The notes under the pieces were generated by a model, which was given only the letters and a program-made list of their open reading frames with translations, did not search any database and was not told where the DNA came from. A DNA stretch of 64,000 nucleotides from Desulfomonilia bacterium (GTDB lineage Bacteria; Desulfobacterota; Desulfomonilia; UBA1062), in assembly GCA_050014195.1 (NCBI GenBank), contig JBEKDT010000002.1, positions 256,001 through 320,000 on the forward strand. The letters are read 5' to 3'. This document shows positions 5,643 to 27,208 of the stretch, piece by piece (the stretch's first letter is position 1; the number at the start of each line of letters is the position of its first letter). The translations under genes and the position numbers were made by a program.

Positions 5643-6320
5643 TTAACTGCGAAGATATCCGAGCAGGTCCCTTGGATCATCCAGGAGAACCCTTGCACCG
5701 TGATTCATGAGCCGCTGCCTGTCCTGGTAACCCCATAAGGCGCCGAATGGCGCCATGCCGGCCCGGCCGGCGGTATCCATATCAATAGCGCTGTCACCCA
5801 CGAAGATGCAGTGTATCGGGTCCACTCCCATACGCTCGGCACACAGATAAGCACCCGCGGGATCAGGCTTTCTCGGGACAGATGGTACAAGACCCCTTAC
5901 TTCGATAAATCTCCAGTTCGGAAGCAGAGACCTTGCCATTGTCTTGGTAAAGTCATCGAGTTTATTTGAGAGGATCGAGAGCCTGATGCCCATTTCCATA
6001 AGCCCGTCAAGCAGCTCCGGGATGCCGGGAAAAGGCCTGGACTTGACGGACCACCGGGCGCCGTATTCATCCCTCATGGCCTTCACACTCGCAGCAATTG
6101 TCTCAACGGTCCTATGTTCCTCCGGCAGGGCCCTCATGGCCAGGACCTCGATCCCGTCGCCGACAAGATCACGATACTGCTCTACCGGAAGGAGGGAAAA
6201 CCCGAGGCCTTCAAGGGCCGCATTCATGGAGTCGGCAATATCCTCGATGGTATCGAGCAATGTACCGTCCATGTCAAAGATCACGGCCTGATATGTGTTA
6301 TTTTTCATAATGTCTGGCAT
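5643..6320 (-). CDS. HAD-family hydrolase (phosphoglycolate phosphatase-like)
   Basis: FDMDGTLLD, LSNK, KPDP, FVGDSAID. Confidence 0.92.
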   Translation of the reverse strand: MPDIMKNNTYQAVIFDMDGTLLDTIEDIADSMNAALEGLGFSLLPVEQYRDLVGDGIEVLAMRALPEEHRTVETIAASVKAMRDEYGARWSVKSRPFPGIPELLDGLMEMGIRLSILSNKLDDFTKTMARSLLPNWRFIEVRGLVPSVPRKPDPAGAYLCAERMGVDPIHCIFVGDSAIDMDTAGRAGMAPFGALWGYQDRQRLMNHGARVLLDDPRDLLGYLRS

Positions 6321-10109: not shown

Positions 10110-10168
10110 TGCGATTTCTTCTCGGTTCTGAAGTGTCTGAAAACCGAAGATCTTGAGTTGAAACATAC
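10110..10168 (+). repeat. 59-bp direct repeat, copy 1
   Basis: 49/59 identical to 10983-11041; last 30 bp (GAAAACCGAAGATCTTGAGTTGAAACATAC) identical. Confidence 0.9.
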
Positions 10169-10297
10169 GAAGCCTATCAATTCATACCAAAGGTCAGCTC
10201 AAAGTAGATCATCTCAGGTCAATATGATATTAATATCTTAGTGTCATGATATTTCATCTGTGAACCCCACCAAGACACCATAAAAGGGGGAAAGGCT

Positions 10298-10982: not shown

Positions 10983-11041
10983 TGCGATTTATCCTCAGTT
11001 TTAGGATGACAGAAAACCGAAGATCTTGAGTTGAAACATAC
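10983..11041 (+). repeat. 59-bp direct repeat, copy 2
   Basis: See 10110-10168. Confidence 0.9.
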
Positions 11042-11253
11042 CAACAAGGTGCTTTATACCAGAGCCTTACACATGGCACGTTATATATAGCTTATTGATG
11101 AATATCTTTTAATTCATTCTATATCTTTTTTACTTCAGCTAACTCTTGCCTTATTTTTAATACATCACTACCAACCTTGTGTTCTGTCGGACCAATAAAC
11201 CATGATGCAACAAATCCTGAAAAGACACCAAATAATCCTACGCCAGCATTCTG

Positions 11254-11502
11254 CTAGAGCTCCTTCCCGGTCTGGAAGGCCTGGCCCACCACCTCGCCGA
11301 GCTTGTGATAGGTCTCGGATGATGTCGAATAGATGAGGGGGTCCACCAACATCGGGTCCACCTTCTTTCCCTTCATGCAGTCCTCGCTGACATAAGTCTG
11401 GGTGATCTCACCGACCACAAGGGTATGGCTTCCCAGATCGAGGGTATGGAGCAGCTTGCATTCGAGGCTCACCGGGCACTCGTCGACAAGCGGTATGTGA
11501 GG
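11254..11502 (-). pseudogene. Duplicated 3' portion of the flavin reductase gene (247-bp direct repeat, copy 1)
   Basis: 11256-11502 appears identical to 23257-23503; encodes PHIPLVDECPV...QTGKEL; stop is TAG here and TGA in the full gene. Confidence 0.93.
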
Positions 11503-11622: not shown

Positions 11623-12225
11623 TTAATGTGACAACCACGCCAGATATGGAGCTACTGCTGCTAATCCAATAAACAAGAAAACCACAATCGCTGGAATTAA
11701 AAATATTATAGCAGCCTTAATATATGAGAGTTCTTGGATAATTTTCATTGCATAGAGAGATAGCCATATACACCAAATGAAAATCAAATAACCTTCTATA
11801 ATCAGTATGATATGTGGAGTAAATGGATTCAAAACAAATGAGATTAGTTGACAAATCACACCAATTGAGCTTATCGACATGAAAGAAATCGCCAGAGACT
11901 TCTTCCCATCATTTTTTGTCACTGCTTTACATGCCCAAGCTACACTTCCAACAAACAAGAAATACAATATGTAGCCGAAGAACCATCTCGCTTGAGGTAT
12001 ACTTAAAAATGATAAGAGATTATTTGTGCTATTATCAAAAAAAGTTATGTAATTCCTTTTTACCCAAAAACTTTTTAATAAAGAAATTACTGCACCGACC
12101 CCGAAAACAAGGAGAGCTTCATTTTGAAGCTCTCCTTGTTTTACTTTGTTAAAAACTGTACTTGGTTGCAGTATTAAATCCCTCATCATGTACCCGGAAG
12201 ACATAAAAAGGTTTTTGTTGCTCAT
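11623..12225 (-). CDS. Putative immunity protein 3, multi-pass membrane protein (Yip1-like)
   Basis: ATG overlaps the stop of the orphan-2 toxin frame (TGATG); 5-6 hydrophobic segments; AT-rich. Confidence 0.7.
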   Translation of the reverse strand: MSNKNLFMSSGYMMRDLILQPSTVFNKVKQGELQNEALLVFGVGAVISLLKSFWVKRNYITFFDNSTNNLLSFLSIPQARWFFGYILYFLFVGSVAWACKAVTKNDGKKSLAISFMSISSIGVICQLISFVLNPFTPHIILIIEGYLIFIWCIWLSLYAMKIIQELSYIKAAIIFLIPAIVVFLFIGLAAVAPYLAWLSH

Positions 12226-12800
12226 CAGTAACCTTGCCTCCAATATTTTTCATTCCCGCCTTGTCTCCAACTTTTTTCATTGAGATCATCATAGGTGCGA
12301 TTATTTACCCAAGGATCCCATTGATAATAAATTGGTTCATCGGGGTTATTGATAAGGTCTTTCCCTGGTCCTCTATTTATGAATGGTCTAACATTTTAAT
12401 GTATTTTTCTTTTTGTGCCGTATGCATGTTCTTTATCTTTACAGGGATTATCAGGATCGGGCTGCCATTCCTGTACGACATTTCTTGATAAACCTGTATA
12501 ATCTGCCGGTGAGGAGAAAGGAACTACGGGATCGAGTCCAATTCCGATTTCTCTTCCAATCCAATTCCCTACACCTCTTAACAAATTATTTGTTTTAGGA
12601 TATTCATAGTTGGTAGTCACCCATATCAATCCAAAAGGATCCACCAGATTCACCGGATCATTGAGACAGTACCCATAGAGGTCGGAATCCCCGCCGTTGA
12701 AGAGGATGGGGTCTTTTGCCGTCCAGCGACCGGTGTCCGGGTCGTAATCACGTGCGCCGAAGCGGATAATTCCGGTGTCCCCGTCACACAGCCCGCCTGC
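12225..12800 (-). pseudogene. Orphan Rhs core tip plus C-terminal toxin module 2, interrupted by one in-frame TAA
   Basis: [57 protein letters not shown]; TAA at 12396-12398, then 56 more sense codons to TGA at 12225-12227. Confidence 0.85.
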
Positions 12801-12808
12801 CGCTTCCT

Positions 12809-13198
12809 TTAATCAATTTTTGAGAATGGCCATATGCGTGGAAGGTTTGAATCTGCCCGACTCTTATAAATATGAATAAATAATATTCTTATAGGCCATG
12901 ACAATATAATCCCAATGAATATGAAGATCGCACTTATATTAGGTGTGTTGGGAATATAAATTGACATTACTCCATTCAATAGAGTTAACAATGACATTGT
13001 CAGGCAAATCATAAAGGAGATCTGATCACCAATTTTTAATATTTTTTTGTTTTTGATATTAGCAAACAATAGATTATCTACGTTATAAAACAATTTTATT
13101 GCTCTCCCTTCTCCTTTGAATGTTCCTTCAATGAACATGAGACCAACACATAGAAGAGCAAAAGAGAATAACCCATTCACAAGAAAATAATTTCCCAT
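12809..13198 (-). CDS. Putative immunity protein 2 (3 TM)
   Basis: 129-aa AT-rich hydrophobic ORF directly downstream of the orphan-1 toxin. Confidence 0.7.
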
Positions 13199-13262: not shown

Positions 13263-14880
13263 CTACCTTTTATCCATAGTGTGGGGCTTCTCAAGGGGAA
13301 CAGTAAGATTGACAGGGAACCCAAGGCCGGTACCTAAACCAAAACTAACAGCATCAACATATTTAAGAGGATCATACCATGATCTACAAGGATCAAATTC
13401 TTTTCTTAACCCAAATTGAACGCCTCCGTACTTACCAGAACCGAGAGATATAACACTCCCTCCGCTTTGTCTTCCTGTTCCACTAAGATCACTAAAACCT
13501 ATACTAACACCGATATCTGCCCATGTGCCAGCAACAGCTTCTGGAGTGAATCCTTTGTAGCTGTAATCAACCAGTGAGCCGTTTGATACATTATATTCGG
13601 AACTAAAAGATCCACCAACTGCAACGGGGCCTATATTAAAAGGAAGATGCGCTCCGCCACTTGCAGTTACTTGGTATAAGCCCCATGGATCTAATAAGTT
13701 GACCGGATCATTGAGACAGTACCCATAGAGGTCAGTATCACCGCCGTTGAAGAGGATGGGGTCTTTTGCCGCCCATCTGCCGGTGTCCGGATCGTAGTCA
13801 CGGGCGCCGAAACGGATGATTCCGGTGTCCCCATCATAGAGCCCGCCTGCAAATCCAAACGGCATGGTGAAAGAAGGATTCGTGTCATTCACCACATACC
13901 CAAAGGTATCATAATCCACCCTCTTCACCACATTGCCCGCAGTATCCGTCACCAGCCTCAGGCTCCCCACCTGGTCACAGCTCAGGTAGTATCGAGTGCT
14001 GCTGCCGTCGGTCATGGCTACAGGCATCCTGGCGTCTGCATACTCGAAGCGGTATCTGAGGGAGTTGTCTGCGTTGTATACCGCGAGAAGCCTGGTTGAA
14101 CCCTGCCAGAGGTACTTCTCGATGATCGAGCCGTTGACCTTCTTCGTTATCCTCCTCCCCAAAGGATCATAATCATATTCTATCACAGTTCCACCCGGCA
14201 GGTTTACTCTTAATAGCTCGCCCCGGCTTGTGTACGTGTAGGTCGTTGCGGAAGAGCCCTGTGTCTTTGTGTGCAGGAACCCATCCGCATCATATACATA
14301 GGAAGTACCCCCTGCCGTGATCACCTGGTCATCATTGGAATAGCTCAGGGACCTCGATGTGGTGATGTCTTTGTACACATTCATCTCCGAGATCCGGGCT
14401 CCATTATTCCCGTAGCTGTAATCCTCCACCACGCTGTTGTTCAACGTTACGGTGCGCAGCCTGCCCAGCGAGTCGTATGCATAAGTAAACGTGTTCGTGG
14501 TGCTGTTCATGGTCTCGGTCTTTCCTGTTATCCTGCCCGTGTTATCATAGGTGAGGCTCCAGGAATGCCCGCTGCTTCCGGCCAAGAATGACTGGCTTGC
14601 CTGCTCCCCGTAGGTATTGAATGTTCGGCCTATGGTGATAGTCCCGTCGGATACTGTGGTGGGAAGCCCGTTGCCCGCATCACGGGTGATTGCATACACG
14701 CCTGCCTGTTTGAGCAGGCGGTCCTTATCGTAGGTGAGGTTCATGATGCCGCCTGCATAGGTCACTGCGCTCACGTCAAAGTCGTTGTTGTATGTGTAGC
14801 CCAGGCTCTGGCTCAACGAACCGCTCATGGTCTCGGAGCTCAGGAGCGAGCCGTTATAGCCGTAGGAAATCCCCTGTGCT
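13263..14880 (-). CDS. Orphan YD/Rhs module 1 with alternative C-terminal toxin (ORF 13263-14828; homology extends to 14880)
   Basis: 13849-14855 appears identical to 15784-16790; PVNLLDPWG cleavage motif followed by a unique Gly-rich tail; no signal peptide. Confidence 0.9.
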
Positions 14881-15021
14881 TTGCCTGAGCATGTTCAGTT
14901 TTGTTAATATGTCCCACGGGCAAGCCCTTCGGGCTTCGCCCCTGCCACCCATGGTCTCTTTATCCAGGCCACCCGCCCGCGCCAGCGGGCGCGCGTCATA
15001 CAGGCGGTGGTCGTCTTTATT

Positions 15022-15285
15022 TTAATTCGCATCTGACCCCGTTTTCCCGGACCGTCTTCTTGGAATAATTATAATTTCAACTACAAACACTATTACCCAA
15101 AATAAAACATACCAAGTTAATGCATATATCCCAGTAAAATATTTCATGATGAACGGACTATTGGGGAAAATATATCTCAGAAGAAATATAGAGAAAAAAA
15201 TAGCTATTACTATAATAACAGAAATAGCATCAGATACTGTTACCGTTCTCTTTTCTATCTTAGATTTTTTATTTATTAATGGCAT
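15022..15285 (-). CDS. Putative immunity protein 1 (2 TM)
   Basis: 87-aa AT-rich ORF overlapping the toxin gene end by 10 nt; two hydrophobic helices. Confidence 0.7.
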   Translation of the reverse strand: MPLINKKSKIEKRTVTVSDAISVIIVIAIFFSIFLLRYIFPNSPFIMKYFTGIYALTWYVLFWVIVFVVEIIIIPRRRSGKTGSDAN

Positions 15286-18200
15286 GGTTTCAGATTCGAC
15301 TCCTTTCGTCTATAGGTCCAGTTATAAATATCAGCTCCTAATGATTGGCCACTTATCTCTTCATATAGTCGATTAAATGCTAAGCCTATTTCCAAACCGC
15401 TACCTAAAGCTAAACCAAAAGGTAAAAATATAGGCAATGATGAAGAAGTCGAAAGCATAATCTCTGAAACAAAAATTCCTGAAGCGCCACTCGCAATTTC
15501 TAATGTATTACCAACAGGACCCCATTTCTCAGGTATATTCGTTGTAGCTTCAAGACCACCAGCGATTATAGGGAGCGCTATTTTAATCGCAATTTCAGTT
15601 TCCTGAAGTATTGTTCCTTTTGGATCTCTATAGTTCACTGGATCACTGACACAGTACCCATACAGGTCCGTATCGCCGCCCTTGAAGAGGATGGGGTCTT
15701 TTGCCGTCCATCTCCCGGTATCCGGGTCGTAGTCACGGGCACCAAAGCGGATCATTCCGGTGTCACCGTCATACACACCACCCGCAAATCCAAACGGCAT
15801 GGTGAAAGAAGGATTCGTGTCATTCACCACATACCCAAAGGTATCATAATCCACCCTCTTCACCACATTGCCCGCAGTATCCGTCACCAGCCTCAGGCTC
15901 CCCACCTGGTCACAGCTCAGGTAGTATCGAGTGCTGCTGCCGTCGGTCATGGCTACAGGCATCCTGGCGTCTGCATACTCGAAGCGGTATCTGAGGGAGT
16001 TGTCTGCGTTGTATACCGCGAGAAGCCTGGTTGAACCCTGCCAGAGGTACTTCTCGATGATCGAGCCGTTGACCTTCTTCGTTATCCTCCTCCCCAAAGG
16101 ATCATAATCATATTCTATCACAGTTCCACCCGGCAGGTTTACTCTTAATAGCTCGCCCCGGCTTGTGTACGTGTAGGTCGTTGCGGAAGAGCCCTGTGTC
16201 TTTGTGTGCAGGAACCCATCCGCATCATATACATAGGAAGTACCCCCTGCCGTGATCACCTGGTCATCATTGGAATAGCTCAGGGACCTCGATGTGGTGA
16301 TGTCTTTGTACACATTCATCTCCGAGATCCGGGCTCCATTATTCCCGTAGCTGTAATCCTCCACCACGCTGTTGTTCAACGTTACGGTGCGCAGCCTGCC
16401 CAGCGAGTCGTATGCATAAGTAAACGTGTTCGTGGTGCTGTTCATGGTCTCGGTCTTTCCTGTTATCCTGCCCGTGTTATCATAGGTGAGGCTCCAGGAA
16501 TGCCCGCTGCTTCCGGCCAAGAATGACTGGCTTGCCTGCTCCCCGTAGGTATTGAATGTTCGGCCTATGGTGATAGTCCCGTCGGATACTGTGGTGGGAA
16601 GCCCGTTGCCCGCATCACGGGTGATTGCATACACGCCTGCCTGTTTGAGCAGGCGGTCCTTATCGTAGGTGAGGTTCATGATGCCGCCTGCATAGGTCAC
16701 TGCGCTCACGTCAAAGTCGTTGTTGTATGTGTAGCCCAGGCTCTGGCTCAACGAACCGCTCATGGTCTCGGAGCTCAGGAGCGAGCCGTTGTATCCGTAG
16801 GAAATCCCCTGTGCTCCCCTGGTCAGGGTGCTGATCTTGGACGGGCAGGAGTACGTGACGTCGATGTTCCCTTCGGGCATCTGCACCTCGGTGAGCAGGC
16901 TGTTCGTATAGGTGTTGCTGATCTGCCTGCCCGAAGGCATGCTGATGGATAGCAGCTGCCTGTCCTTGTTGTAGGCGTAGGCATAGGTGTTGTTCAGAGG
17001 GGTCTGGTATGAGCTTGACAGGTTCACGCGGTTGTAGCCGAAGTCATGGTCCGCCGTGGTGCCCAGGGTGGGGCTCGGCTTGCTCAGCACGGTCATGTTT
17101 CCGTTTGGGTCATAATTGAAACTGAGACCGCTGCCATCCGGACGGTCCACCTGGAAGAGGAGGTCGCGGCTGTTATAGTGATAGATTGTGGTGAAATTCA
17201 TTGGGTCTGTAATCGCAGATGTCCGGTCATTCACGTTCGTGTCATTGTACGCTAAGCTCGTGGTGCGGCTGCCGGTGGTGATTGCCAAGGGCCTGCCCCT
17301 GTTGTCATACTGGTATGCGGTGTCAGTGAGCCCGGTCACGTGCAGCAGTATGGTCAGCAGGGTGCCCGGGTCGTACGTGAACGTGGTTACCCTGCCTTCA
17401 GGACTTGTGAGGGTGCGGATGTGATTGATGGTGTTTGTTGCAAGTGTTGCGGTCTTGCCGTTCATTACCGAGGTCTCTGTGATGAGGTCCGGTATGCCGT
17501 CGCCATTGGTATCCGCATAGGTCGCACCAAAGGTCGTTGTCCGGGAGAGGCTGCCCGTAGTCTCCATAAGATTATTCATGAATTTGTACTTGTAAGCCGC
17601 ATCCAGGCCGTAGTCACTCGTAATGCTCATGCCGCAGGAAAGCGTCTTCTCCACATGCATGTCGCTTGCTGACTGGAAATAATTCGTCTGGTCTCCTGCA
17701 GGGCCTGTGATGACGGAATGGAACCCTGCGGAATCAGTGGTGTCTGCATAGGTGGTGGTGTTGTTCTCGCCCGAGGTTATGGCATAATCCGTCTCCCCGG
17801 TTGTCTGGTTGACCTGCCTCGTGTAGACCCAGTGGCCTCCTTCCGGATCGGTTACGTCCGTTACCTTGCCCGTGTCGTCAAAGGTATGGACGAAATAGTT
17901 GCCCCTCGGATCGCGTTCCTGTGTCATGAGGCCGCCGCCGTTGTAATCGAAATGATACCCGTTGCCGTCGGAGAAAGTGAGGTCCGTGAGATTGCTTCCC
18001 GCATCGAGAGTAAGCGCTGTACTGATGCCGTCTTGCGATACTATGGTTGAAGGAACACCGCCTGCATAATTGATGGTGGTCGTCTCATTAAAGCGGTTGG
18101 TGACGGAGGTGAGGTTCCTGTTGCTGTCATACCCGAAGGCATAGAGTTGGGCACCTGTCTGCACGTCAAAGGTTCTCTTGTGATATCCTGCATAGTCAAA

Positions 18201-21200
18201 GACATAGCAGATCCCATCTTCCACAAAGGGGATGTCGCCCTGGTCCAGCTTGTAGGACCCGATATCGCCATATGCCGAGGAGACCTCGCGGACCCTGAAA
18301 TTGTTCGAATCCGCTATGTAGAGATCCCCTTTCTGGTCCAGAGCCAATCCAAAGGGTAAGTAGAGATACGAGCTTGTTGCCAGGCCGCCATCTCCGGAGA
18401 AACCCCACCGCCCCATTCCTGCAAGAGTAGTTATGATACCGTTCGTATCTATCATCCGCACCTTATGGGTGGTCCCATCCGATACATAGATATTGCCGAC
18501 ATGATCGACCAGTATGCCGCTGGCATTTATGTAAGCCTGCGTTGCCGGTATTCCATCACTATCGGATCCAGATACTCCGTAGTTTGAAGACCCTCCAGCG
18601 ATGCGCGAGAGATATCCACTGGTATCAACCTTTAAAACCCCGTCAGATAAGTCAGCAATATACATATTGCCTTCATCGTCAAAGCAGACGGATTGCGGTT
18701 CGATACTGGCCTTTTTCGCCGGACCGGGGATATTGCCGGGGCCCATGGTTCTGGTGCCGGCAACCGTATTTATGAGTCCATTCTTGTCGATCCTGCGTAC
18801 TCGATAACCACTGTCTACATACCCTTCTGTGAAATAGATGTTCTTTTCGCTATCAACAGCTATTTTCCAGGCATAGATCAATGCCTGGGTTGCAGGGATA
18901 TTTTCGTTGTGGCAATCATTGCCCCCACCGGCTATGAGAACCGAACTGCCTGCCGGGTTGATTTTATAAATGTAGAATCCGGCCGAATAATTTCCCATAG
19001 AATAATAGACAGTATCATCCTTATCAACAGCAACTGAAATAACCGACCCAGGTGTTATTCTTGTGAGAACATTGTTGGTATCAAGCTTATACACCCCGCC
19101 CGTATAAGCATAGTAATCTACAACAGCCATGTATACATTGCCTTTTGAATCAATCGCTACGTCATAGGGATAACCTGCACTACTGGAAGTCAAGAAATTG
19201 GCTACCGTATCTATGGTTCTATTTAATTCATTGCTGACGACTGTCCCATCGCCCTTATAAACCTTGGCTGGTTCATAAGGATACATACGGTGATTTGTGC
19301 TGACAGTCCAGCTCTGGGCCATGGACTTATCCAGTGATCCCTTGTTTACGACAAGCCGGTATTGTTTCCAGATGATTGCTTGCTGCCGTGCCGAATTGAA
19401 CGTCCATGCAAGGCTTTCACTATTTTGAGCAAACGCCAGGATAGATGGGTTACTTGCTGCTTCAGTATCGGGAATATAACAGGCCGGGTACGCGAAACCT
19501 ATCTTTATATTTGCAGGGATTGGTCCATGGGTCTGATTTCCCCAGGCATCCATCCCATCCCACACAAACGTTACTGTCTGGTTCGGTGCAGGGGTAAGCG
19601 TCTCACTATACACTTCCCCGGCAATAGTCATCTGAACAATAATGGAAGATAGATTGGAAGGCACCGTATTACCACTCGCAGGGATGGTGATGGTGTATTT
19701 GTTGCCTTGGGACCTGCTGCTTGCATAATGCAGCGAGATATCCGTACCGGGTATCGGGATGTCCTCATCTACGCTCTGGCTCCTGTCTTCTACGGAACTA
19801 GCAATTTTAGGAACAGGACAGGGTTTTATGTCTACATTCTGGTTTCCACCTCCCTGGACTGAAGGGGCACTATTAGGATTCGGCGGTTTATTATCCGCTG
19901 GCAGAAAGGCAAAGTTCCAGTCATAGATGCTGAAATGCGACATCTCCACCCGCATGAATGTCTTGCCGGGCTGGAATCTCGATGGGTTCTGCTGGAGCCC
20001 TGCCACTTCATCGGTAAAGTCACCGTTTCCATTCAGATCCGTCGGCTGACCATTTCCTGTTGCATCGAGGGCATGGACAAGACCATCCCCAACTGTGTCG
20101 AGCAGTTTGACTACAACGCCATTCTTTTGTGCTATCCAGGTGCCCGTATCCCTATTGTAGTAGCCTACCGGGACAACGGTACCGACAGGCAAATTAAGGA
20201 AGTTATCCTCCCATGCTATCACCGGATTGCTGAATGTAACCCTTTCGACGCCGTCTATCTTGAACTCGGCGCAGAAGGTGTAGGCCGACTGGGGTGGAAG
20301 CAATGCGGGCATTGACATGGGACCATTGTCGCCCACCGTGTACTCGGTCACCCTTACCGACATGCTGCTGGGCAGTGTCTGAATCGCATTGCCGTTGGCA
20401 TCAACCGCTGTGGCAACGGTATTACCTTTAAACACCAGGGTACAGGACCGCTGACCGTTGCTGTCGGAAGAGGTGCTGCTCTGATGGAGGAACGCGGACT
20501 GAGAGTTTCCGTCCAGGGTGATGGTGGTTGCTGCGGTATCCTGCTGAATCATCACTATTGTGTCGACAACAGCGTGCTCATTCCATGGAACGTTGACATT
20601 CGGGTGCACGTTCAGGAAACCATTCATGCTGTATACCACGGTCATGAGGCCGCCGCCTTCAACGGGCAGACCGAATCTCCCTGTACTGTCTGTCTGTGCC
20701 GTGCCGTACTCGGGGTGGCCGAGGATCGTGACCGACACCCCGGGCAGCGGGGCGTTGGTTTTGTCCTGGACAATGCCGGTGACCACGGAAAACCGGCCGG
20801 CATCATATTGCTGCACAGTGGAATCAATCGGGATGAACCCTTCATATGGCTTGCCGAAAGAACCGTCGGGCAGAGGAGTACGGGGGACCGCTACCTTCAC
20901 CGTGACCTGTGCGCTCGCAGAGCCCCACTGGTTCGAGACCGTGAGGGTATAGGTGGTGGTTACCTGGGGGGAGATTGTCAGAGGAGATGCGCTTATATTA
21001 ACCGTGCCTACAGGGTCGATGTAGGCGGTCGTTACATTATCCACATTGGAGCATTGCCAGCTCAGCGTCGTGGATGTGCCTTGAAGGATCGGGGTATTGC
21101 CGCAGGCTGCAGTAAAACTGTCAATAGAGGGCGGGTTGTGTGCAGGTGTCACGGTGACTGTTGCGCGCGAGGTCGCGGTACCGCCCGGGCCGGTAGCTGT

Positions 21201-23039
21201 AATAGTGTAGGTTGTGGTCTGGTTCGGCGACACGAGCGTGGACCCGGTCGGGTTGACCGCACCGATGCCATTGTCGATACTCAGGGTGGTGGCATTGGCT
21301 GAAGACCAGGTGAGGGTAGACGAAGAACCTTGAACAATGGATGCGGGATTCGCCGTCAAGGTCACGATGGGGGGAGGCGGTGGAGTAACGGTCAATGTAA
21401 CACTGGCAGTGGCAGTTCCACCAGGGCCGGTGGCATAGATGGTATAGGTGGTTGTCGTGGTAGGTTTAACGGTCAGGGAGCTGTTCGCGGGTACCGCCCC
21501 GATGTTATTGTCGATGGTGACGGTGACAGCATTGGTGGATGACCAGGAGAGGATCGAGGTCTGACCTGTGATGATGGAAGTCGGTGTGGCATTGATACTG
21601 ACCGTTGGCGGCTGGTACACGGTAATTGTGACCGACTGTGTCTGGGTCCCGCATGCGCCTGTGGCGGTGATGGTATAGGTGGTGGTGCTCTGGGGGTTTA
21701 CCGAGATGGAGCCTGATGCCGCTACAGCACCTATCCCATTGTCTATGCTGACGCTCTGGGCATTCTCGGAGGTCCATATGAGAGAGCATGGGTCGCCCGT
21801 TTTTATTGCAGCAGGGTTGGCGGTTATGCTTACCGTGGGAGGTGAGCATTGTATGGTTGCCTTGGTGGTATCACTTGAAGTTCCGCCGTTATTGTTGGAG
21901 ACAGTGAGCTTTACCGCATATATGCCGGGTGAGGTGTATTTATGTGTAGGGGAAACGCCACTCCCATAAGAACCATCTCCAAAATCCCAGTTATAGGTCA
22001 GAGGGGATCCATTAGGGTCTGTTGAACCGGAACCGTCAAAGGTTATCGTCTGGTTCACTCCGCCGGTATATGGCCCGCCTGCGCGGGCTACAGGCGGTAT
22101 GTTGAGTGGAGGAAGCTCATCCACCTCGGTGATGAAGGTCTGGAGCACGGATGCGCCTTTCCAGTCTTTTACTTTAACCGTTATCTCATAATCACCTATG
22201 GCAGGCGGCGTCCATTGGATGCATCCGGTAAGGGGATTGATTGTCATCCCGGGAGGTGGGCTCACAAGTGAGTATGTCATGATATCCAATTGAGGGTCTG
22301 TTGCAAGAACGTCATACATGTACGGCAGTCCTACAATGGCAGGGGTTACAGGCCGGGAATAAATAACCGGCGGATAATTGAGCTTGGGAATAGTGTGGAA
22401 CGGGTGGGCGCTTGCAACATGGGAAAAAGACAACGTGCCGTTCAGCAATACGCCGACCACGTACAAGTATGTTGCGTCCTTAAGATTTGGATCAGTGTAT
22501 GTGACGGCGGATGGTCCCAGTTCTGCGATCTTTACAAAATTTGAAGGGTCGGTCTCCGGTGCGCGGTAGATATCATAGCCCTGTGCACCCTTTACCGGGA
22601 GCCATGCCATAACCACTTTCCCTTTCAAACCAACAGGAAGGAAAAAATACTCGGGATCAACGGAGAAATAGAGGGTATGCGGGTCGGATCGCTGAAGTCC
22701 GTTATTGGTGAATAATGTGACGGCATACGTCCCTTCGGGAATAAAAACGAGCGGGCTGGGTTCAGCAATTCTTGAGAATGGGCCATACCATTCATAGGAA
22801 AGGGGATTGCCTGTAACGTTGAACAGGCTGCTGTCCAGAACAATGTTGCTCCCCAAGGGTAAGTTCTTGTCGAAAACAGCATCTCCTTTCGGGTCCGGAG
22901 GGCAGGCAGCGGCTTTGTTCGTGAAAGGGATGAGTGCAGTGTTGAGCAGGACCAGGAACAAGAATATTCTGAATATGAAAGCCAGGGATTTTAAGACACA
23001 CTGATATACACGACAAGATACGCGACAAGTGTTGCTCAT
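15276..23039 (-). CDS. Secreted bacterial teneurin-like YD/Rhs polymorphic toxin (Ig/PKD repeats, TTR-like, Fn-plug, NHL, YD shell, toxin tip)
   Basis: GGAGG SD before ATG 23039; Sec-type signal ending NKAAA; PKD (YNWDFGDG); four Thr-rich Ig-like repeats; NHL repeats (GFSGDGG...PFGLALDQKGDLYIADSNNFRVR); YD repeats; [10 protein letters not shown]...PVNYRDPKG. Confidence 0.92.
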   Translation of the reverse strand: MSNTCRVSCRVYQCVLKSLAFIFRIFLFLVLLNTALIPFTNKAAACPPDPKGDAVFDKNLPLGSNIVLDSSLFNVTGNPLSYEWYGPFSRIAEPSPLVFIPEGTYAVTLFTNNGLQRSDPHTLYFSVDPEYFFLPVGLKGKVVMAWLPVKGAQGYDIYRAPETDPSNFVKIAELGPSAVTYTDPNLKDATYLYVVGVLLNGTLSFSHVASAHPFHTIPKLNYPPVIYSRPVTPAIVGLPYMYDVLATDPQLDIMTYSLVSPPPGMTINPLTGCIQWTPPAIGDYEITVKVKDWKGASVLQTFITEVDELPPLNIPPVARAGGPYTGGVNQTITFDGSGSTDPNGSPLTYNWDFGDGSYGSGVSPTHKYTSPGIYAVKLTVSNNNGGTSSDTTKATIQCSPPTVSITANPAAIKTGDPCSLIWTSENAQSVSIDNGIGAVAASGSISVNPQSTTTYTITATGACGTQTQSVTITVYQPPTVSINATPTSIITGQTSILSWSSTNAVTVTIDNNIGAVPANSSLTVKPTTTTTYTIYATGPGGTATASVTLTVTPPPPPIVTLTANPASIVQGSSSTLTWSSANATTLSIDNGIGAVNPTGSTLVSPNQTTTYTITATGPGGTATSRATVTVTPAHNPPSIDSFTAACGNTPILQGTSTTLSWQCSNVDNVTTAYIDPVGTVNISASPLTISPQVTTTYTLTVSNQWGSASAQVTVKVAVPRTPLPDGSFGKPYEGFIPIDSTVQQYDAGRFSVVTGIVQDKTNAPLPGVSVTILGHPEYGTAQTDSTGRFGLPVEGGGLMTVVYSMNGFLNVHPNVNVPWNEHAVVDTIVMIQQDTAATTITLDGNSQSAFLHQSSTSSDSNGQRSCTLVFKGNTVATAVDANGNAIQTLPSSMSVRVTEYTVGDNGPMSMPALLPPQSAYTFCAEFKIDGVERVTFSNPVIAWEDNFLNLPVGTVVPVGYYNRDTGTWIAQKNGVVVKLLDTVGDGLVHALDATGNGQPTDLNGNGDFTDEVAGLQQNPSRFQPGKTFMRVEMSHFSIYDWNFAFLPADNKPPNPNSAPSVQGGGNQNVDIKPCPVPKIASSVEDRSQSVDEDIPIPGTDISLHYASSRSQGNKYTITIPASGNTVPSNLSSIIVQMTIAGEVYSETLTPAPNQTVTFVWDGMDAWGNQTHGPIPANIKIGFAYPACYIPDTEAASNPSILAFAQNSESLAWTFNSARQQAIIWKQYRLVVNKGSLDKSMAQSWTVSTNHRMYPYEPAKVYKGDGTVVSNELNRTIDTVANFLTSSSAGYPYDVAIDSKGNVYMAVVDYYAYTGGVYKLDTNNVLTRITPGSVISVAVDKDDTVYYSMGNYSAGFYIYKINPAGSSVLIAGGGNDCHNENIPATQALIYAWKIAVDSEKNIYFTEGYVDSGYRVRRIDKNGLINTVAGTRTMGPGNIPGPAKKASIEPQSVCFDDEGNMYIADLSDGVLKVDTSGYLSRIAGGSSNYGVSGSDSDGIPATQAYINASGILVDHVGNIYVSDGTTHKVRMIDTNGIITTLAGMGRWGFSGDGGLATSSYLYLPFGLALDQKGDLYIADSNNFRVREVSSAYGDIGSYKLDQGDIPFVEDGICYVFDYAGYHKRTFDVQTGAQLYAFGYDSNRNLTSVTNRFNETTTINYAGGVPSTIVSQDGISTALTLDAGSNLTDLTFSDGNGYHFDYNGGGLMTQERDPRGNYFVHTFDDTGKVTDVTDPEGGHWVYTRQVNQTTGETDYAITSGENNTTTYADTTDSAGFHSVITGPAGDQTNYFQSASDMHVEKTLSCGMSITSDYGLDAAYKYKFMNNLMETTGSLSRTTTFGATYADTNGDGIPDLITETSVMNGKTATLATNTINHIRTLTSPEGRVTTFTYDPGTLLTILLHVTGLTDTAYQYDNRGRPLAITTGSRTTSLAYNDTNVNDRTSAITDPMNFTTIYHYNSRDLLFQVDRPDGSGLSFNYDPNGNMTVLSKPSPTLGTTADHDFGYNRVNLSSSYQTPLNNTYAYAYNKDRQLLSISMPSGRQISNTYTNSLLTEVQMPEGNIDVTYSCPSKISTLTRGAQGISYGYNGSLLSSETMSGSLSQSLGYTYNNDFDVSAVTYAGGIMNLTYDKDRLLKQAGVYAITRDAGNGLPTTVSDGTITIGRTFNTYGEQASQSFLAGSSGHSWSLTYDNTGRITGKTETMNSTTNTFTYAYDSLGRLRTVTLNNSVVEDYSYGNNGARISEMNVYKDITTSRSLSYSNDDQVITAGGTSYVYDADGFLHTKTQGSSATTYTYTSRGELLRVNLPGGTVIEYDYDPLGRRITKKVNGSIIEKYLWQGSTRLLAVYNADNSLRYRFEYADARMPVAMTDGSSTRYYLSCDQVGSLRLVTDTAGNVVKRVDYDTFGYVVNDTNPSFTMPFGFAGGVYDGDTGMIRFGARDYDPDTGRWTAKDPILFKGGDTDLYGYCVSDPVNYRDPKGTILQETEIAIKIALPIIAGGLEATTNIPEKWGPVGNTLEIASGASGIFVSEIMLSTSSSLPIFLPFGLALGSGLEIGLAFNRLYEEISGQSLGADIYNWTYRRKESNLKPCH
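20893..21842 (-). repeat. Four tandem ~77-80-aa Ig-like repeats within the toxin
   Basis: PPTVSI.A.P..I..G....L.W.S.NA..V.IDN.IGAV........P..TTTYTI.ATG..GT consensus. Confidence 0.8.
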
Positions 23040-23254
23040 CACAAACAACCTCCTCAAAATTACTCAAAGTAATGAGAGGGTGATTACATAACAATATTTA
23101 CAGTATATTATTTAATATCCTGAGATCTGCCGGCCTGTCAATATGAAAACTTACAGAATGGTTGAATCGACATCGTTACCCATCAACCTGTGAATCCAGA
23201 AAGCTCTTAATTCCCGGATACTGATTCATTCATTTCATCTCAAGCCCACAGTCC

Positions 23255-23812
23255 TCAGAGCTCCTTCCCGGTCTGGAAGGCCTGGCCCACCACCTCGCCG
23301 AGCTTGTGATAGGTCTCGGATGATGTCGAATAGATGAGGGGGTCCACCAACATCGGGTCCACCTTCTTTCCCTTCATGCAGTCCTCGCTGACATAAGTCT
23401 GGGTGATCTCACCGACCACAAGGGTATGGCTTCCCAGATCGAGGGTATGGAGCAGCTTGCATTCGAGGCTCACCGGGCACTCGTCGACAAGCGGTATGTG
23501 AGGGTTTTCGCCTCTGCTTATGGTAAAGAGGTTTGATTTGTCCCGGTCTTTGCCGGAATAGATGCCGCAGTAGTCAACGATCTTCACCATTGCGCTGGAT
23601 GGTACATTCACTGAAAAACAATGATTCTCCTCGATCCCTTTCAGGGTATGGCGGCCTTTCCGTACAGCAACGGAAACAGTCGGCGGCTGGTGCGATGCAA
23701 TGCCGCACCAGGCAACGACCATAAAATTGGCCTTGCCGTCCACTTCGGCCCCGATAAGGACCGATGGCATGGGGTATAAAATTGTCCGCGGGCCCTGCTT
23801 TTGTTTGATCAT
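23255..23812 (-). CDS. Flavin reductase-like FMN-binding protein (flavoredoxin family); 3' 247 bp form direct repeat copy 2
   Basis: LYPMP, NFMVVAW, FSVNVPS, DYCGIYSG...DK, ECPVSLECK, GSHTLVVGEI. Confidence 0.92.
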   Translation of the reverse strand: MIKQKQGPRTILYPMPSVLIGAEVDGKANFMVVAWCGIASHQPPTVSVAVRKGRHTLKGIEENHCFSVNVPSSAMVKIVDYCGIYSGKDRDKSNLFTISRGENPHIPLVDECPVSLECKLLHTLDLGSHTLVVGEITQTYVSEDCMKGKKVDPMLVDPLIYSTSSETYHKLGEVVGQAFQTGKEL

Positions 23813-24523: not shown

Positions 24524-25558
24524 ATGATTGTAAAAACAATATCCCTTGTTGTTCCCTGTTATAATGAGACTCATACTATCCCTGCTTTTTACAAGAGAGT
24601 TGTAGCACTGGCCGAGTTAATGAGCAGGCAGTCCTTTGAGTTTATCTTTGTAAATGATGGCAGTACCGATGGAACAGATCGCATCCTAAACGATCTGGCC
24701 CTTAAGGATCAAAGAGTCAAAATACTACACTTGGCTAAGAATAGAGGTCAGCAAATAGCACTCATTGCGGGTATGGATTTTGCGACTGGTGAGATGATCG
24801 TCACAATAGATGCAGACTTGCAAGACCCACCAGAACTTATAACAGAGATGATGAAAAAGATTGAAGATGGATATGATGTTGTCCACGCACAAAGAAGGCA
24901 TAGGAGTGGCGAAACCTGGTTTAGACTTGCAACTGCAAAATTATATTACCGTATCCTCAAAATGTTATCTCAGCTTCCTATAATTGATGAGTGTAGTGAG
25001 TTCCGTGCATTTAGTCGTGCTGTCCTTTTAGCGGTTTCTGAATTTCGGACCTCACATCGATTCTTACGAGGCACTTTTATTCAAGTAGGGTTCAGGCAGT
25101 GTATCATACAGTACGACAGAGATCCTCGATATGCAGGGTATTCAAAATATCCCTTTTGTAAGTTGATGGATTTAGCAATTGATGGAATACTAAGCTTTTC
25201 ATCTGTACCGATCAGGATCATCACCTGGCTATCAATAATTCTTTGCACTTGTGTTCTCATACAATTGTTAGCTGTACTATACGAGCATTCATTCTTACAT
25301 AGTGCCATAAACATATGGAGTTTAATTATAGCGACAATGTTTTTTTTCACTGGTCTTATTCTATTTATTCTGTTCAGTATCGCCATTATAGCCTTATATA
25401 TAGGACGCATCTTTCAACAAGGGCAGAACCAGCCACTATATTGGATATATGAGACTCGCAATATTGATATTGCCTGTATTTCTGAAAAAGCACTTGAATT
25501 GAGAGAGGTCAGACTTTCACAACAGATTATGAAAGAGAATAATTGTGATCGATCATGA
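24524..25558 (+). CDS. GT2 polyprenol-phosphate glycosyltransferase (GtrB/ArnC-like)
   Basis: VVPCYNE, VNDGSTDGT, DADLQDPPE, two C-terminal TMs. Confidence 0.92.
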   Translation: MIVKTISLVVPCYNETHTIPAFYKRVVALAELMSRQSFEFIFVNDGSTDGTDRILNDLALKDQRVKILHLAKNRGQQIALIAGMDFATGEMIVTIDADLQDPPELITEMMKKIEDGYDVVHAQRRHRSGETWFRLATAKLYYRILKMLSQLPIIDECSEFRAFSRAVLLAVSEFRTSHRFLRGTFIQVGFRQCIIQYDRDPRYAGYSKYPFCKLMDLAIDGILSFSSVPIRIITWLSIILCTCVLIQLLAVLYEHSFLHSAINIWSLIIATMFFFTGLILFILFSIAIIALYIGRIFQQGQNQPLYWIYETRNIDIACISEKALELREVRLSQQIMKENNCDRS

Positions 25559-25618: not shown

Positions 25619-27208
25619 ATGAATACACAGAATGATAAGCAATCCCAAACAGATGCTCAAAATAAATCACGAGAGTTATTTTATGTAGCTATTTATTTAT
25701 TTATCTTAAGCTTTGCTATTCGATTCCCTTTCTTCTTTGATATTGTTATTAATTGGGATGAGAGCACATTTATATTAATGGGACAATCCATCCTGGATGG
25801 ACACCTGCCCTATACAGAGTTGTGGGATATAAAGCCACCATTAGCAATCTTGTTCTTCGCAGGTGCTATTGCCCTACTGGGTAAAAGCATTGTTTCAGTA
25901 CGAATTGCTGGCACACTCTGTGTTGCATTAACTGCTTTTTTTACTTATCTAACAGGCAAGACTCTCTGGAATCGTCGCACAGGCATTTTAAGCGCAACGT
26001 TGTTTATAGTACTTGCCAGTAGTATCAATTTAGGGCAAGCAGTCATGACGGAACATGTAGCATTAGTGCCCCTGGTTGGCGCACTTGCTCTTTTCGTAAT
26101 GCGAGAACAAACACCACGTACAGTTTTTTTCATTGGTATATTGATAGCAATAGCATCCTTTGTTCGTATCAATCTTGCTTTTGTTGCAGTTTTCGCTGGT
26201 ATTATTATAGTTATTGCGGCGTTGACTGCCCGACCTCGTCAGTTCAGCTACTTCAACTCACTCAAGTCAGGACTTGCATATATAGCTGGTGGTAGCCTCA
26301 TCGTTCTGCTTGTTTTCCTACCTTATGTAATCACTGGGAATGAGAGACTCTGGTGGTCATCAGTTGTTTTAGCTCCATTAAGTTTTGCAAATTCCCAGCT
26401 TTCTTTTTTGGAAGCGTTAAATAAACAGTTGGAGATGTTTTGGGGGTTTTTCCTTAATATCAAAGGATCTCTTTTTGGAATAAGCGTGATAGTATGGCTG
26501 TGTGGATTTGCGGGTCTTTTCTTTGGCATTACACAGTTGCGAAATATGTCAAAAGATAAAAGATTCGGTTTTCTATTTCTAATCGCTTTTCTTTTATCAA
26601 TAGAGTTATCAATTTTAAAAGGTGGGGGTGGTGGACTACCCTTTACTCATTACCTTATACAACTAGTTCCCTTTATGTCTTTAACTGCATCTTCTATTTT
26701 ATGTTCTACCAAATCTTTCAATGCTCGCTTGATAATAATGGGCATGGTTTTATTGGCATTAATAACATCTATGCCCCCGATTATTACAGAATACGAGATA
26801 ATAATTTCACGTGTTTTAGATGGCCTTCCGATAAATCATGGCACTGCATATGCGGTTGCGGATTATATTAGGCAGCATAATGTTAATCGTAAACCGGTTT
26901 ACATGATGGATGACCACATTGTTTATTGGCTTCTTGATTTAAAGCCATTGAGTAAGTCCACCACGCATCCTTCAAATATTTCGAGGGAATATCTTCTTAA
27001 GGTACTCGTCGGTCCTGGGACTACCACTGAGATGGAATTAGCTAAAATATTCGATAAGAAGCCTCTATTCATTGTGTTTGACAATTGGAGTATGGCTTAC
27101 ATAAGTCAAAGTAAGGAAGCAAGGAACTTTTTCATCTACAAACTGACAACACTATATGATCCTATCATGAGTATAGATGATGAGCATATATGTCGATTAA
27201 AAGAATAA
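25619..27208 (+). CDS. GT-C fold membrane glycosyltransferase (ArnT/PMT-like)
   Basis: WDESTF...G.LPY..LWDIKPP motif and about 11-12 TM segments. Confidence 0.85.
   Translation: MNTQNDKQSQTDAQNKSRELFYVAIYLFILSFAIRFPFFFDIVINWDESTFILMGQSILDGHLPYTELWDIKPPLAILFFAGAIALLGKSIVSVRIAGTLCVALTAFFTYLTGKTLWNRRTGILSATLFIVLASSINLGQAVMTEHVALVPLVGALALFVMREQTPRTVFFIGILIAIASFVRINLAFVAVFAGIIIVIAALTARPRQFSYFNSLKSGLAYIAGGSLIVLLVFLPYVITGNERLWWSSVVLAPLSFANSQLSFLEALNKQLEMFWGFFLNIKGSLFGISVIVWLCGFAGLFFGITQLRNMSKDKRFGFLFLIAFLLSIELSILKGGGGGLPFTHYLIQLVPFMSLTASSILCSTKSFNARLIIMGMVLLALITSMPPIITEYEIIISRVLDGLPINHGTAYAVADYIRQHNVNRKPVYMMDDHIVYWLLDLKPLSKSTTHPSNISREYLLKVLVGPGTTTEMELAKIFDKKPLFIVFDNWSMAYISQSKEARNFFIYKLTTLYDPIMSIDDEHICRLKE

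Follow-up and report, generated by a model that had tools for sequence, protein, structure and literature searches.

A bacterial teneurin-like protein with orphan tip cassettes in a Desulfomonilia genome

Introduction

Bacterial teneurin-like proteins (TLPs) are the presumed ancestors of the receptors that wire animal nervous systems. The present work describes a TLP gene, together with the toxin array that follows it, in a stretch of 64,000 nucleotides (below, the window; contig JBEKDT010000002.1, positions 256,001 to 320,000) from a Desulfomonilia bacterium (GCA_050014195.1), the source being a metagenome-assembled genome of 4.2 Mb in 29 contigs that is 100% complete. A model that had been given the letters and their open reading frames (ORFs), referred to here as the sequence-only reading, had proposed a secreted teneurin-like protein at the head of a polymorphic toxin array. 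The gene very probably encodes a bacterial TLP, i.e. a polymorphic toxin of the Rhs/YD superfamily on the teneurin superfold.

A sequence-based description of the bacterial TLP family dates from 2018 (Nat Commun, PMC5851990), and a cryo-electron microscopy structure of the Bacillus inaquosorum protein, BiTLP (PDB 9PT5, 9IFO), was reported in 2026 (Raoelijaona et al., Nat Commun 2026, PMC13018210). According to the latter report, BiTLP is cut after L2144 by R2103/D2116/D2140, a second cut takes place at G723|S724 in the FN-plug, and a C719-C2216 disulfide is present (PMC13018210). The hydrophobic BiTLP tip was found to permeabilise E. coli from the periplasm only, while other TLP tips have other activities, with immunity genes located downstream (PMC13018210). 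[quoted passage not shown] Display and cargo delivery were named as open questions in the Discussion of that report, where a signalling or social role was also left open (PMC13018210); the picture of display and delivery is unchanged by the present locus.

The kind of protein is not new, since it was described from sequence in 2018 and solved and tested in 2026; hence, the novelty implied by the sequence-only reading is not supported (PMC5851990; PMC13018210). The observation itself is confirmed and the teneurin-like reading is supported, the locus being a further member of the published family. The local additions are modest, namely TLPs with orphan arrays, a common stalk on which bodies have been exchanged and a 12-kb unit bracketed by repeats.

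Gene and family assignment

The TLP gene is located at 15276..23039 on the minus strand and encodes 2,587 amino acids (aa) from its ATG. A single intact ORF extends over 15276..23057 (-), with 2,593 codons counted from a TTG; the ATG at 23039, with GAGGAGG 9 nt upstream, is the likely start and agrees with the sequence-only reading. Residue numbering begins at the TTG (23057) throughout, the ATG being residue 7. Every sequence string quoted in that reading which was tested was found in its place: VTGIVQDK at residues 759-766, DTIVM at 832-836, EDIPIPGTD at 1098-1106, VTFVWDGMDAWG at 1162-1173 and DPKG at 2478-2481.

In a search of PDB sequences with the whole protein, the top match was 'Teneurin-like protein' 9pt5_A/9ifo_A (E 1e-229), collinear over query residues 491-2484. 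It was followed by animal teneurins 2, 3 and 4 and the fly Teneurin-m, with E values from 2.2e-82 for teneurin-2, the best of these, to 8.4e-52 for Teneurin-m. Rhs proteins from type VI secretion systems (T6SS) ranked after the teneurins (E 1e-36 to 1e-10) and matched query residues 2206-2487 only. The likeness of the region preceding the NHL propeller to teneurins had been proposed in the sequence-only reading, which a lack of any match would have refuted; on comparing residues 745-1260 alone with all PDB sequences, it was found that all 18 matches were the bacterial TLP or animal teneurins, the TTR aligning with that of teneurin-3 at E 6e-10 and the stretch 1091-1194 with the teneurin-3 FN-plug at a domain E of 6e-14. 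The order TTR, then FN-plug, then NHL, then YD shell, proposed earlier as that of animal teneurins, is thus borne out by best PDB matches that are TLPs and teneurins; the segments before the shell are indeed lacking in ordinary T6SS Rhs proteins, which match the last ~220-390 shell residues only.

Signal peptide and stalk

A long signal peptide (~45 aa) is predicted at residues 7-51 (22905..23039, -), where hydropathy indicates a hydrophobic core at ~17-47 followed by the end AAA|C, in line with the signal peptide suggested earlier. Among 34 stalk relatives listed, a start like MNNTC(R/K) and an AxA|C end are common to many, and the few without that Cys still keep AxA. The signal peptide appears better suited to signal peptidase I (SPI) than to a lipobox, because there is Ala at -3 and Lys at -4 and because the relatives without the Cys keep AxA. 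A lipoprotein reading of AAAC had been prompted by the Cys common in the relatives and was leaned away from on the same grounds. The lipobox rule applied to AAAC is general background and not the output of a predictor. The start MNNTC(R/K), or a close variant, is unusually conserved ahead of the hydrophobic core in ~20 of the 34 listed relatives (P0011-P0058 set) and could be an extended signal-peptide motif; we know of no description of it, no literature search having been made.

The signal peptide is followed by a stalk of beta-sandwich domains, residues 52-745 (20823..22904, -), assigned by Pfam and by reading of the repeats; Pfam matches were judged against the curated cut-offs throughout. 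He_PIG, an immunoglobulin (Ig) family, lies above its cut-off at residues 229-311 and PKD_4 scores 82.8 bits at residues 320-401, while Ig-like repeats of ~80 aa begin at residues 406, 483 and 562, with a fourth, placed by eye, reaching to ~735. The PKD and Ig-like stalk of the sequence-only reading is therefore recovered, and PKD-like and FN3-like labels were assigned by eye within residues 52-228.

Teneurin-like body

The TTR domain, residues 752-836 (20550..20804, -), matches PF25020 TTR_TEN1-4 with 67.2 bits against a cut-off of 27 (E 1.2e-18). It is followed at ~837-1077 (19827..20549, -) by the TIP domain, which is included in a collinear alignment of query residues 754-1196 with BiTLP 398-835; these ~240 residues between TTR and FN-plug find a partner in the bacterial protein only and are skipped by the alignments of animal teneurins.

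The FN-plug, ~1078-1200 (19458..19826, -), was delimited by the teneurin-3 alignment and is likewise collinear with BiTLP; it contains Cys1080 and a predicted cleavage site at A1086|S1087. C1080 and S1087 align on C719 and S724 of BiTLP, and close orthologues have PF24329 (FN-plug) in their precomputed annotation. When the present protein was aligned with 11 other TLPs of the phylum and two close orthologues, the FN-plug Cys was found in all 14 and the cleavage-site Ser in 13, the orthologue P0015 having Cys at the Ser position.

An NHL beta-propeller with approximate boundaries at ~1260-1600 (18258..19280, -) is indicated by PF25021 TEN_NHL (54.9 bits against a cut-off of 27.1, best stretch 1501-1547), by NHL and SBBP repeats and by several alignments to the NHL blades of BiTLP. 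The YD/Rhs shell extends over ~1601-2482 (15612..18257, -), with the Rhs core motif at 2437-2482, and matches PF25023 TEN_YD-shell with 130.3 bits against a cut-off of 50 (best stretch 2153-2459) as well as RHS_repeat above its cut-off (best stretch 2297-2326); query 1539-2484 aligns with BiTLP 1201-2146 at 398 bits. The last 224 residues, used as a query, align gap-free to 9pt5, so that R2441, D2454 (DPIL) and D2478 (DPKG) stand on R2103, D2116 and D2140, and T2482 stands on L2144, the last ordered residue of BiTLP. The Arg and two Asp of the Rhs autoprotease, set in the pattern DPxx-x(~20)-DPxG after which TLPs are cut, are hence conserved, and by this alignment the protein would be expected to cleave itself. 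The NHL propeller, the YD repeats and the DPxG motif of the sequence-only reading correspond to TEN_NHL, TEN_YD-shell and DPKG.

Comparison with described systems

The closest described protein, BiTLP, has an Ig-type stalk, TTR, TIP, FN-plug, NHL propeller, YD shell, Rhs core and short tip in the same order as the present protein. The catalytic R/D/D and the Cys and Ser of the FN-plug are the same, and in both a hydrophobic tip of ~100 aa is followed by a small gene directly downstream. The two differ in that the present host is Gram-negative and the present stalk consists of PKD, He_PIG and Ig repeats, whereas BiTLP has BIG domains; moreover, the tip and the candidate immunity protein are unrelated, the alignment stopping at 2484, two orphan tip/immunity cassettes are present here, and AxA|C, in place of a lipobox, closes the signal peptide.

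In metazoan teneurins (chicken Ten2, 6FB3; mouse Ten3, 6FAY) the TTR and the FN-plug are matched as separate domains. These proteins have a type II transmembrane anchor, an intracellular domain and EGF repeats, whereas the present protein begins with a signal peptide, and Pfam detects no EGF family in it; they are without the TIP, which occupies ~240 aa between TTR and FN-plug here. The Rhs cleavage motif, intact in the present protein, is missing from them, as judged by alignment and as reported earlier (PMC13018210). Their uncleaved C-terminus leaves the shell as ABD/Tox-GHH, which is absent here, where the tip belongs to no Pfam family.

The T6SS Rhs effectors (RhsA, 7Q97; RhsP, 8H8A; Tse5, 8CP6) resemble the present protein in having a YD shell around a cleaved polymorphic tip, a DPxG core and downstream immunity, although enclosure, cleavage and immunity are so far predicted for the present protein. 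They differ in that the present protein is without a PAAR/VgrG mounting and has a Sec signal, an FN-plug closure and an NHL propeller.

Cargo tip and candidate immunity gene

The C-terminal cargo (CTD1) is predicted as residues 2483-2593 (111 aa; 15279..15611, -) because T2482 falls on BiTLP L2144. By hydropathy it has one strong hydrophobic segment with the GxxxG run GLALGSGLEIG; it ends in KPCH, Cys2592 being penultimate, and a C2592-C1080 tether like that of BiTLP is possible by analogy. Among 5.8 billion clusters, one distant relative of CTD1 was found, the C-terminus of another RHS protein (P0003; 47% identity over 54% of the query), with which it has GLAFNxxYExISGQSLGADIYxWT in common. 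A search of the ESM Atlas with CTD1 gave unnamed clusters at 0.90 and a cluster of pore-forming colicins at rank 22 (0.87), where recognition is below the usual mark; this match is a lead only. The AlphaFold2 model of CTD1 from the single sequence had a mean pLDDT of 40.1, too uncertain for a fold search.

Directly downstream, at 15022..15285 (-), lies candidate immunity gene 1, which was assigned by position, its ATG overlapping the TLP stop by 10 nt. It encodes 87 aa with two hydrophobic helices and has no Pfam match above the cut-off. A complex prediction for CTD1 and the 87-aa ORF product returned 'no answer' with a score of 0.00. Because of this position and of the analogy to BiTLP, CTD1 may be a toxin that damages membranes and the 87-aa protein an immunity protein that sits in the membrane. 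The three small ORFs of the array are polytopic membrane proteins, the 206-aa one having several hydrophobic segments by hydropathy, and a hydrophobic CTD1 with three downstream membrane ORFs fits the periplasm-only permeabilisation reported for BiTLP (PMC13018210).

Tip exchange and orphan cassettes

The exchangeable cargo tip of the sequence-only reading was substantiated by two orthologues from other assemblies, P0015 (2,600 aa) and P0016 (2,620 aa), which are 85-95% identical to the present protein in most 100-residue windows to ~2400. After residue 2500, within the last ~110 residues, the identity is 16-22%, and their tips are unrelated to CTD1, in keeping with the short (~15 kDa) polymorphic C-terminal domain of bacterial TLPs. 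The P0015 and P0016 tips form one family with conserved His and Asp (WHG...HAM...IHxAxD) and have an enzyme-like look, unlike the hydrophobic CTD1.

The claim that the gene heads an array also held, for the TLP gene is followed on the same strand by a membrane ORF, an orphan YD/Rhs C-terminus, a second membrane ORF, an orphan tip and a third membrane ORF. Orphan 1 (13263..14880, -) is a C-terminal fragment of a YD shell (PF25023, E 1.3e-32) with an Rhs core (DPWGL) and a Gly-rich tip of 137 aa; its product of 521 aa repeats the last ~390 shell residues. It has a perfect run of 1,007 nt in common with the main gene (13849-14855 = 15784-16790), after which the Rhs cores differ by 27 mismatches in 163 nt, and an unrelated tip begins after DPWGL. 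Five database relatives of the orphan 1 tip were found at 50-60% identity, all five with TEN_YD-shell and four of them only 370-454 aa long. An AlphaFold2 model of this tip from a 6-row alignment is an all-beta hairpin with a mean pLDDT of 44.2, a confidence that does not justify searching for similar folds.

Candidate immunity gene 1 and orphan 1 are separated by a GC-rich palindromic REP-like element at 14905..14985, which has 16 matches in the genome itself. Loose contig ends at 14904-14952 were considered as alternative cassettes and rejected, as they are due to this 16-copy element.

Orphan 1 is followed by candidate immunity gene 2 (12809..13198, -), which encodes 129 aa with ~3 hydrophobic segments and no Pfam family. 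Orphan 2 (12396..12800, -), recognised from its translation and nucleotide identity, retains no more than ~60 aa of the Rhs core (DPFGL), to which another tip, the third, of 76 aa is joined, its core being 87-89% identical in nucleotides to the Rhs cores of the main gene and orphan 1. Candidate immunity gene 3 (11623..12243, -) encodes a polytopic membrane protein of 206 aa with a Yip1 domain (PF04893, E 6.2e-8, 33.1 bits).

Orphan tip arrays are well known for Rhs and CdiA. Orphan rhs-CT/immunity arrays of Rhs effectors are reportedly the subject of work by Poole in 2011 and by Koskiniemi in 2014, and the arrays of T6SS Rhs are like the present one in that recombination would be possible through the homology of the orphan tips to the main gene. 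The downstream regions of 17 other TLPs of the phylum were inspected, two of which ended before the core. At least two Rhs-core copies within ~10 kb downstream were found at 7 of the 15 evaluable loci (2-4 copies, 0.6-5 kb apart), where some of the extra copies could belong to other genes. Of the teneurin-like loci sampled in the phylum, about half would thus have orphan tip arrays as well. The literature matches listed include no description of teneurin-like proteins with orphan tip arrays, and 'orphan' is a word that the BiTLP report does not use in its main text (PMC13018210).

Proposed mode of action and alternatives

From the architecture, the catalytic and cleavage residues, the replaced tips, the repeats and the missing T6SS markers (see below), we infer a scheme of export, surface display, cleavage, encapsulation, toxicity, immunity, target and delivery. 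The TLP would be exported via Sec by its ~45-aa signal peptide, and the ~700-residue Ig/PKD stalk would keep the body of TTR, TIP, FN-plug, NHL and YD domains off the cell. The YD shell, closed by the FN-plug, would enclose the last 111 residues, the Rhs aspartyl-protease motif R2441/D2454/D2478 would cut after T2482, and a second cut would be expected before S1087. Once cut free, the hydrophobic cargo, which a Cys2592-Cys1080 bond may tether, would be released onto a neighbour by some trigger and damage its membrane, while the producer would be protected by the 87-aa two-helix membrane protein. Through homologous recombination in shell or core sequence common to both, the two promoterless spare tip/immunity cassettes could take the place of the current tip.

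Several observations weigh against the scheme. The Pfam match to FN-plug_TEN1-4 reaches 24.4 bits, under the 27.8 cut-off, and Pfam and cluster searches placed neither CTD1 nor any of the three candidate immunity proteins in a family whose function is known. Orphan 1 lacks the near-terminal Cys that its five homologues have and may be decaying, and in orphan 2 the core is not preceded by a start codon. The AxA|C end suits SPI, as opposed to the SPII predicted for Gram-negative TLPs (PMC13018210), and the crossing of, or anchoring in, the outer membrane is unexplained. In the BiTLP work, the shell of chimeras did not protect E. coli from the cargo (PMC13018210), so that full encapsulation in vivo is uncertain.

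The alternative that survives best, though it is unlikely, is that the protein serves chiefly in cell-cell adhesion or kin recognition, with the shell as a binding surface as in animal teneurins and a tip that is no toxin. The long Ig/PKD stalk would suit such a role, the same stalk carries a non-toxin propeller body in the congener G403 and in many relatives of ~1,600 aa (see below), CTD1 has no recognisable toxin fold, and a signalling or social role was left open for TLPs (PMC13018210). However, all three residues of the Rhs autoprotease triad are kept, orthologues that are otherwise near-identical have exchanged tips and a small membrane ORF stands after each spare tip; these features form a toxin/immunity signature, and the animal teneurin alignments stop at about position 90 of the 224-residue query, before the cleavage motif. 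'Adhesin' and 'self-contained', the terms of the sequence-only reading, are conjectural descriptions.

It is very improbable that the protein is instead an ordinary T6SS Rhs effector or a Tc BC-type subunit with its partner genes elsewhere. The end of the shell and the Rhs core do resemble those of T6SS Rhs proteins at the E values given above, and a second Rhs gene with a TcdB-midN/FG-GAP propeller is present on contig C8. Against this, a Sec signal peptide stands in place of a PAAR/VgrG-binding N-terminus, and the FN-plug and NHL propeller differ from a TcB-type closure. In addition, PAAR_motif (PF05488), VipB/TssC (PF05943) and Phage_GPD/VgrG (PF05954) gave 0 matches in the 100%-complete genome, each being matched in control genomes. 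The earlier statement that no PAAR, VgrG or Tc genes lie nearby can therefore be extended to the whole genome for PAAR and VgrG; as regards Tc it holds for the window only, given the TcdB-midN Rhs gene on C8. TcdB_toxin_midN was not found in the TLP by Pfam, and a search for VRP1 (TcA) was uninformative, as there was no match anywhere and hence no positive control.

The second Rhs gene (G000:C8:163366-166791) lies in an open frame of 2,004 aa and has FG-GAP, TcdB-midN-like and RHS repeats, an architecture unlike that of the TLP. A PF25023 search had suggested that the TLP was the only YD protein in the genome, which was rejected on account of the RHS repeats of this gene.

Locus history and assembly

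The entire toxin array is bracketed by two copies of a perfect 247-nt direct repeat spaced 12,001 nt apart. By sequence comparison, the proximal copy (23257..23503) lies inside an intact flavin reductase gene (23255-23812, -), and the distal copy (11256..11502), 100% identical to it, is the 3' end of that gene. Such bracketing is the pattern left by Campbell-type integration or duplication, and if the two copies recombined, the array would be lost and the flavin reductase gene would stay intact.

DNA of the TLP gene is present in all 24 peat/wetland metagenome runs listed, and the contigs of four peat runs (X4, X7, X16 and X17) were placed on the array. The low side of the distal copy is reached or crossed by contigs of X4, X7 and X16 and its high side by those of X4, X7 and X17, X16 being confined to the low side of this copy. 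No junctions of an excised array or of a tip-switched form were seen in these contigs, which cannot resolve the 247- and 1,007-nt repeats. It is scarcely credible that the array arose in assembly through the joining of two strains at one of these repeats: the genome is metagenome-assembled in 29 contigs, pairings around the 247-nt repeat cannot be ordered from short-read graphs, and the unitig graph fits the integrated order and an empty site plus a 12-kb circle alike, but three of the four runs (X4, X7, X17) together enter or cross all four repeat edges, array and flanks have equal depth, the repeat in X4 is a contig of its own at about double depth (21.7 against 12-15 in the flanks), the gene is unbroken on a single contig of 6,526 nt in two runs, the right-hand junction is common to G403, and the identity of the gene would be unaffected by any chimera.

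The surroundings of the flavin reductase gene were compared at seven congener loci. In five of the seven, flavin reductase lies 13-285 nt from a HAD hydrolase (5643-6320 here), and in six its other flank adjoins the counterpart of 31.0 kb here; from these adjacencies it follows that those congeners lack the parts of the window at 6.3-23.25 kb and 23.85-31.0 kb. In G403, the same site holds a secreted protein of 1,535 aa (P0011; L022, G403:C22, 13829-18436, -), the first ~530 residues of which are 92% identical to the TLP, the identity being 81% over residues 5-725. Nucleotide identity breaks at about window position 21418, residue ~546, and the body of the G403 protein is a YncE-like beta-propeller and not a TLP; a 40-aa remnant of a YD shell lies by the HAD gene (L022:10907-11026).

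A database search with residues 1-560 showed that the stalk occurs mostly on YVTN-type propeller proteins of ~1,500-1,700 aa, at 50-73% identity, and on TLP bodies only in the closest set, i.e. P0014-P0016 and the present protein. These YVTN/YncE-type proteins of Desulfobacterota, such as P0011, resemble the TLP over the first ~545 residues (signal peptide, PKD-like, FN3-like, He_PIG, PKD and Ig repeats) and differ from it after ~545-725, where a YncE-like propeller and Glucodextran_B-type domains are found, with TTR_TEN, the FN-plug, NHL and the YD shell all missing. Since the stalk is found on both kinds of body, TLP and propeller bodies have been exchanged on one stalk, in one direction or the other. 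It may tentatively, and with some doubt, be proposed that the first ~545 residues, with the ~45-aa signal peptide and the PKD, FN3 and Ig domains, suffice by themselves as a cassette for export and display in these peat Desulfobacterota, that bodies are swapped on it by recombination at a fixed site so that there are two nested levels of cargo swapping, the whole body and the 111-aa tip, and that the 12-kb array could leave as a unit via the 247-nt repeats. If this were true, the stalk family would indicate the route of Gram-negative TLPs to the surface of the cell. A natural series is provided by one peat population and its relatives, with the same shell bearing different tips, spare tips placed to recombine, and the same stalk on different bodies, which could be used to map the parts deciding export, display and cargo exchange.

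Distribution and neighbouring genes

Of 400 other genomes from the phylum, 26 contain a match to the segment of TIP and FN-plug; when the count was confined to high-quality genomes and included the genome itself, the figure was 17 of 340. Among the seven congeners it was found in G402 and, with the same query, not in G115, G209, G403, G407, G409 or G410. The G402 copy (G402:C10:73581-74852, L052) is 67% identical over TIP/FN-plug, lies at a different locus and has an open frame of 1,574 aa that is maybe truncated.

Just beyond the flavin reductase gene, as seen from the TLP, a GT2 glycosyltransferase (24524-25558, +) and a PMT_2/ArnT-like membrane glycosyltransferase (25619-27208, +) lie in a low-GC stretch (~0.38-0.41) of ~7 kb that is absent from six of the seven congener loci. 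Glycosylation of the Thr/Pro-rich stalk by these enzymes would be pure speculation. On the other side, in the same inserted low-GC region as the array, a protein of 948 aa (6706-9552, -) combines a calcineurin-like phosphoesterase with 'Novel STAND NTPase 5' (130 bits) and looks like the product of a defence-type gene. A direct repeat of 62 nt (10110-10171 and 10983-11044, 82% identical) surrounds a 219-aa ORF without known function, and a sequence similar to this repeat is found in G403 (L022 19830-19890, 87%).

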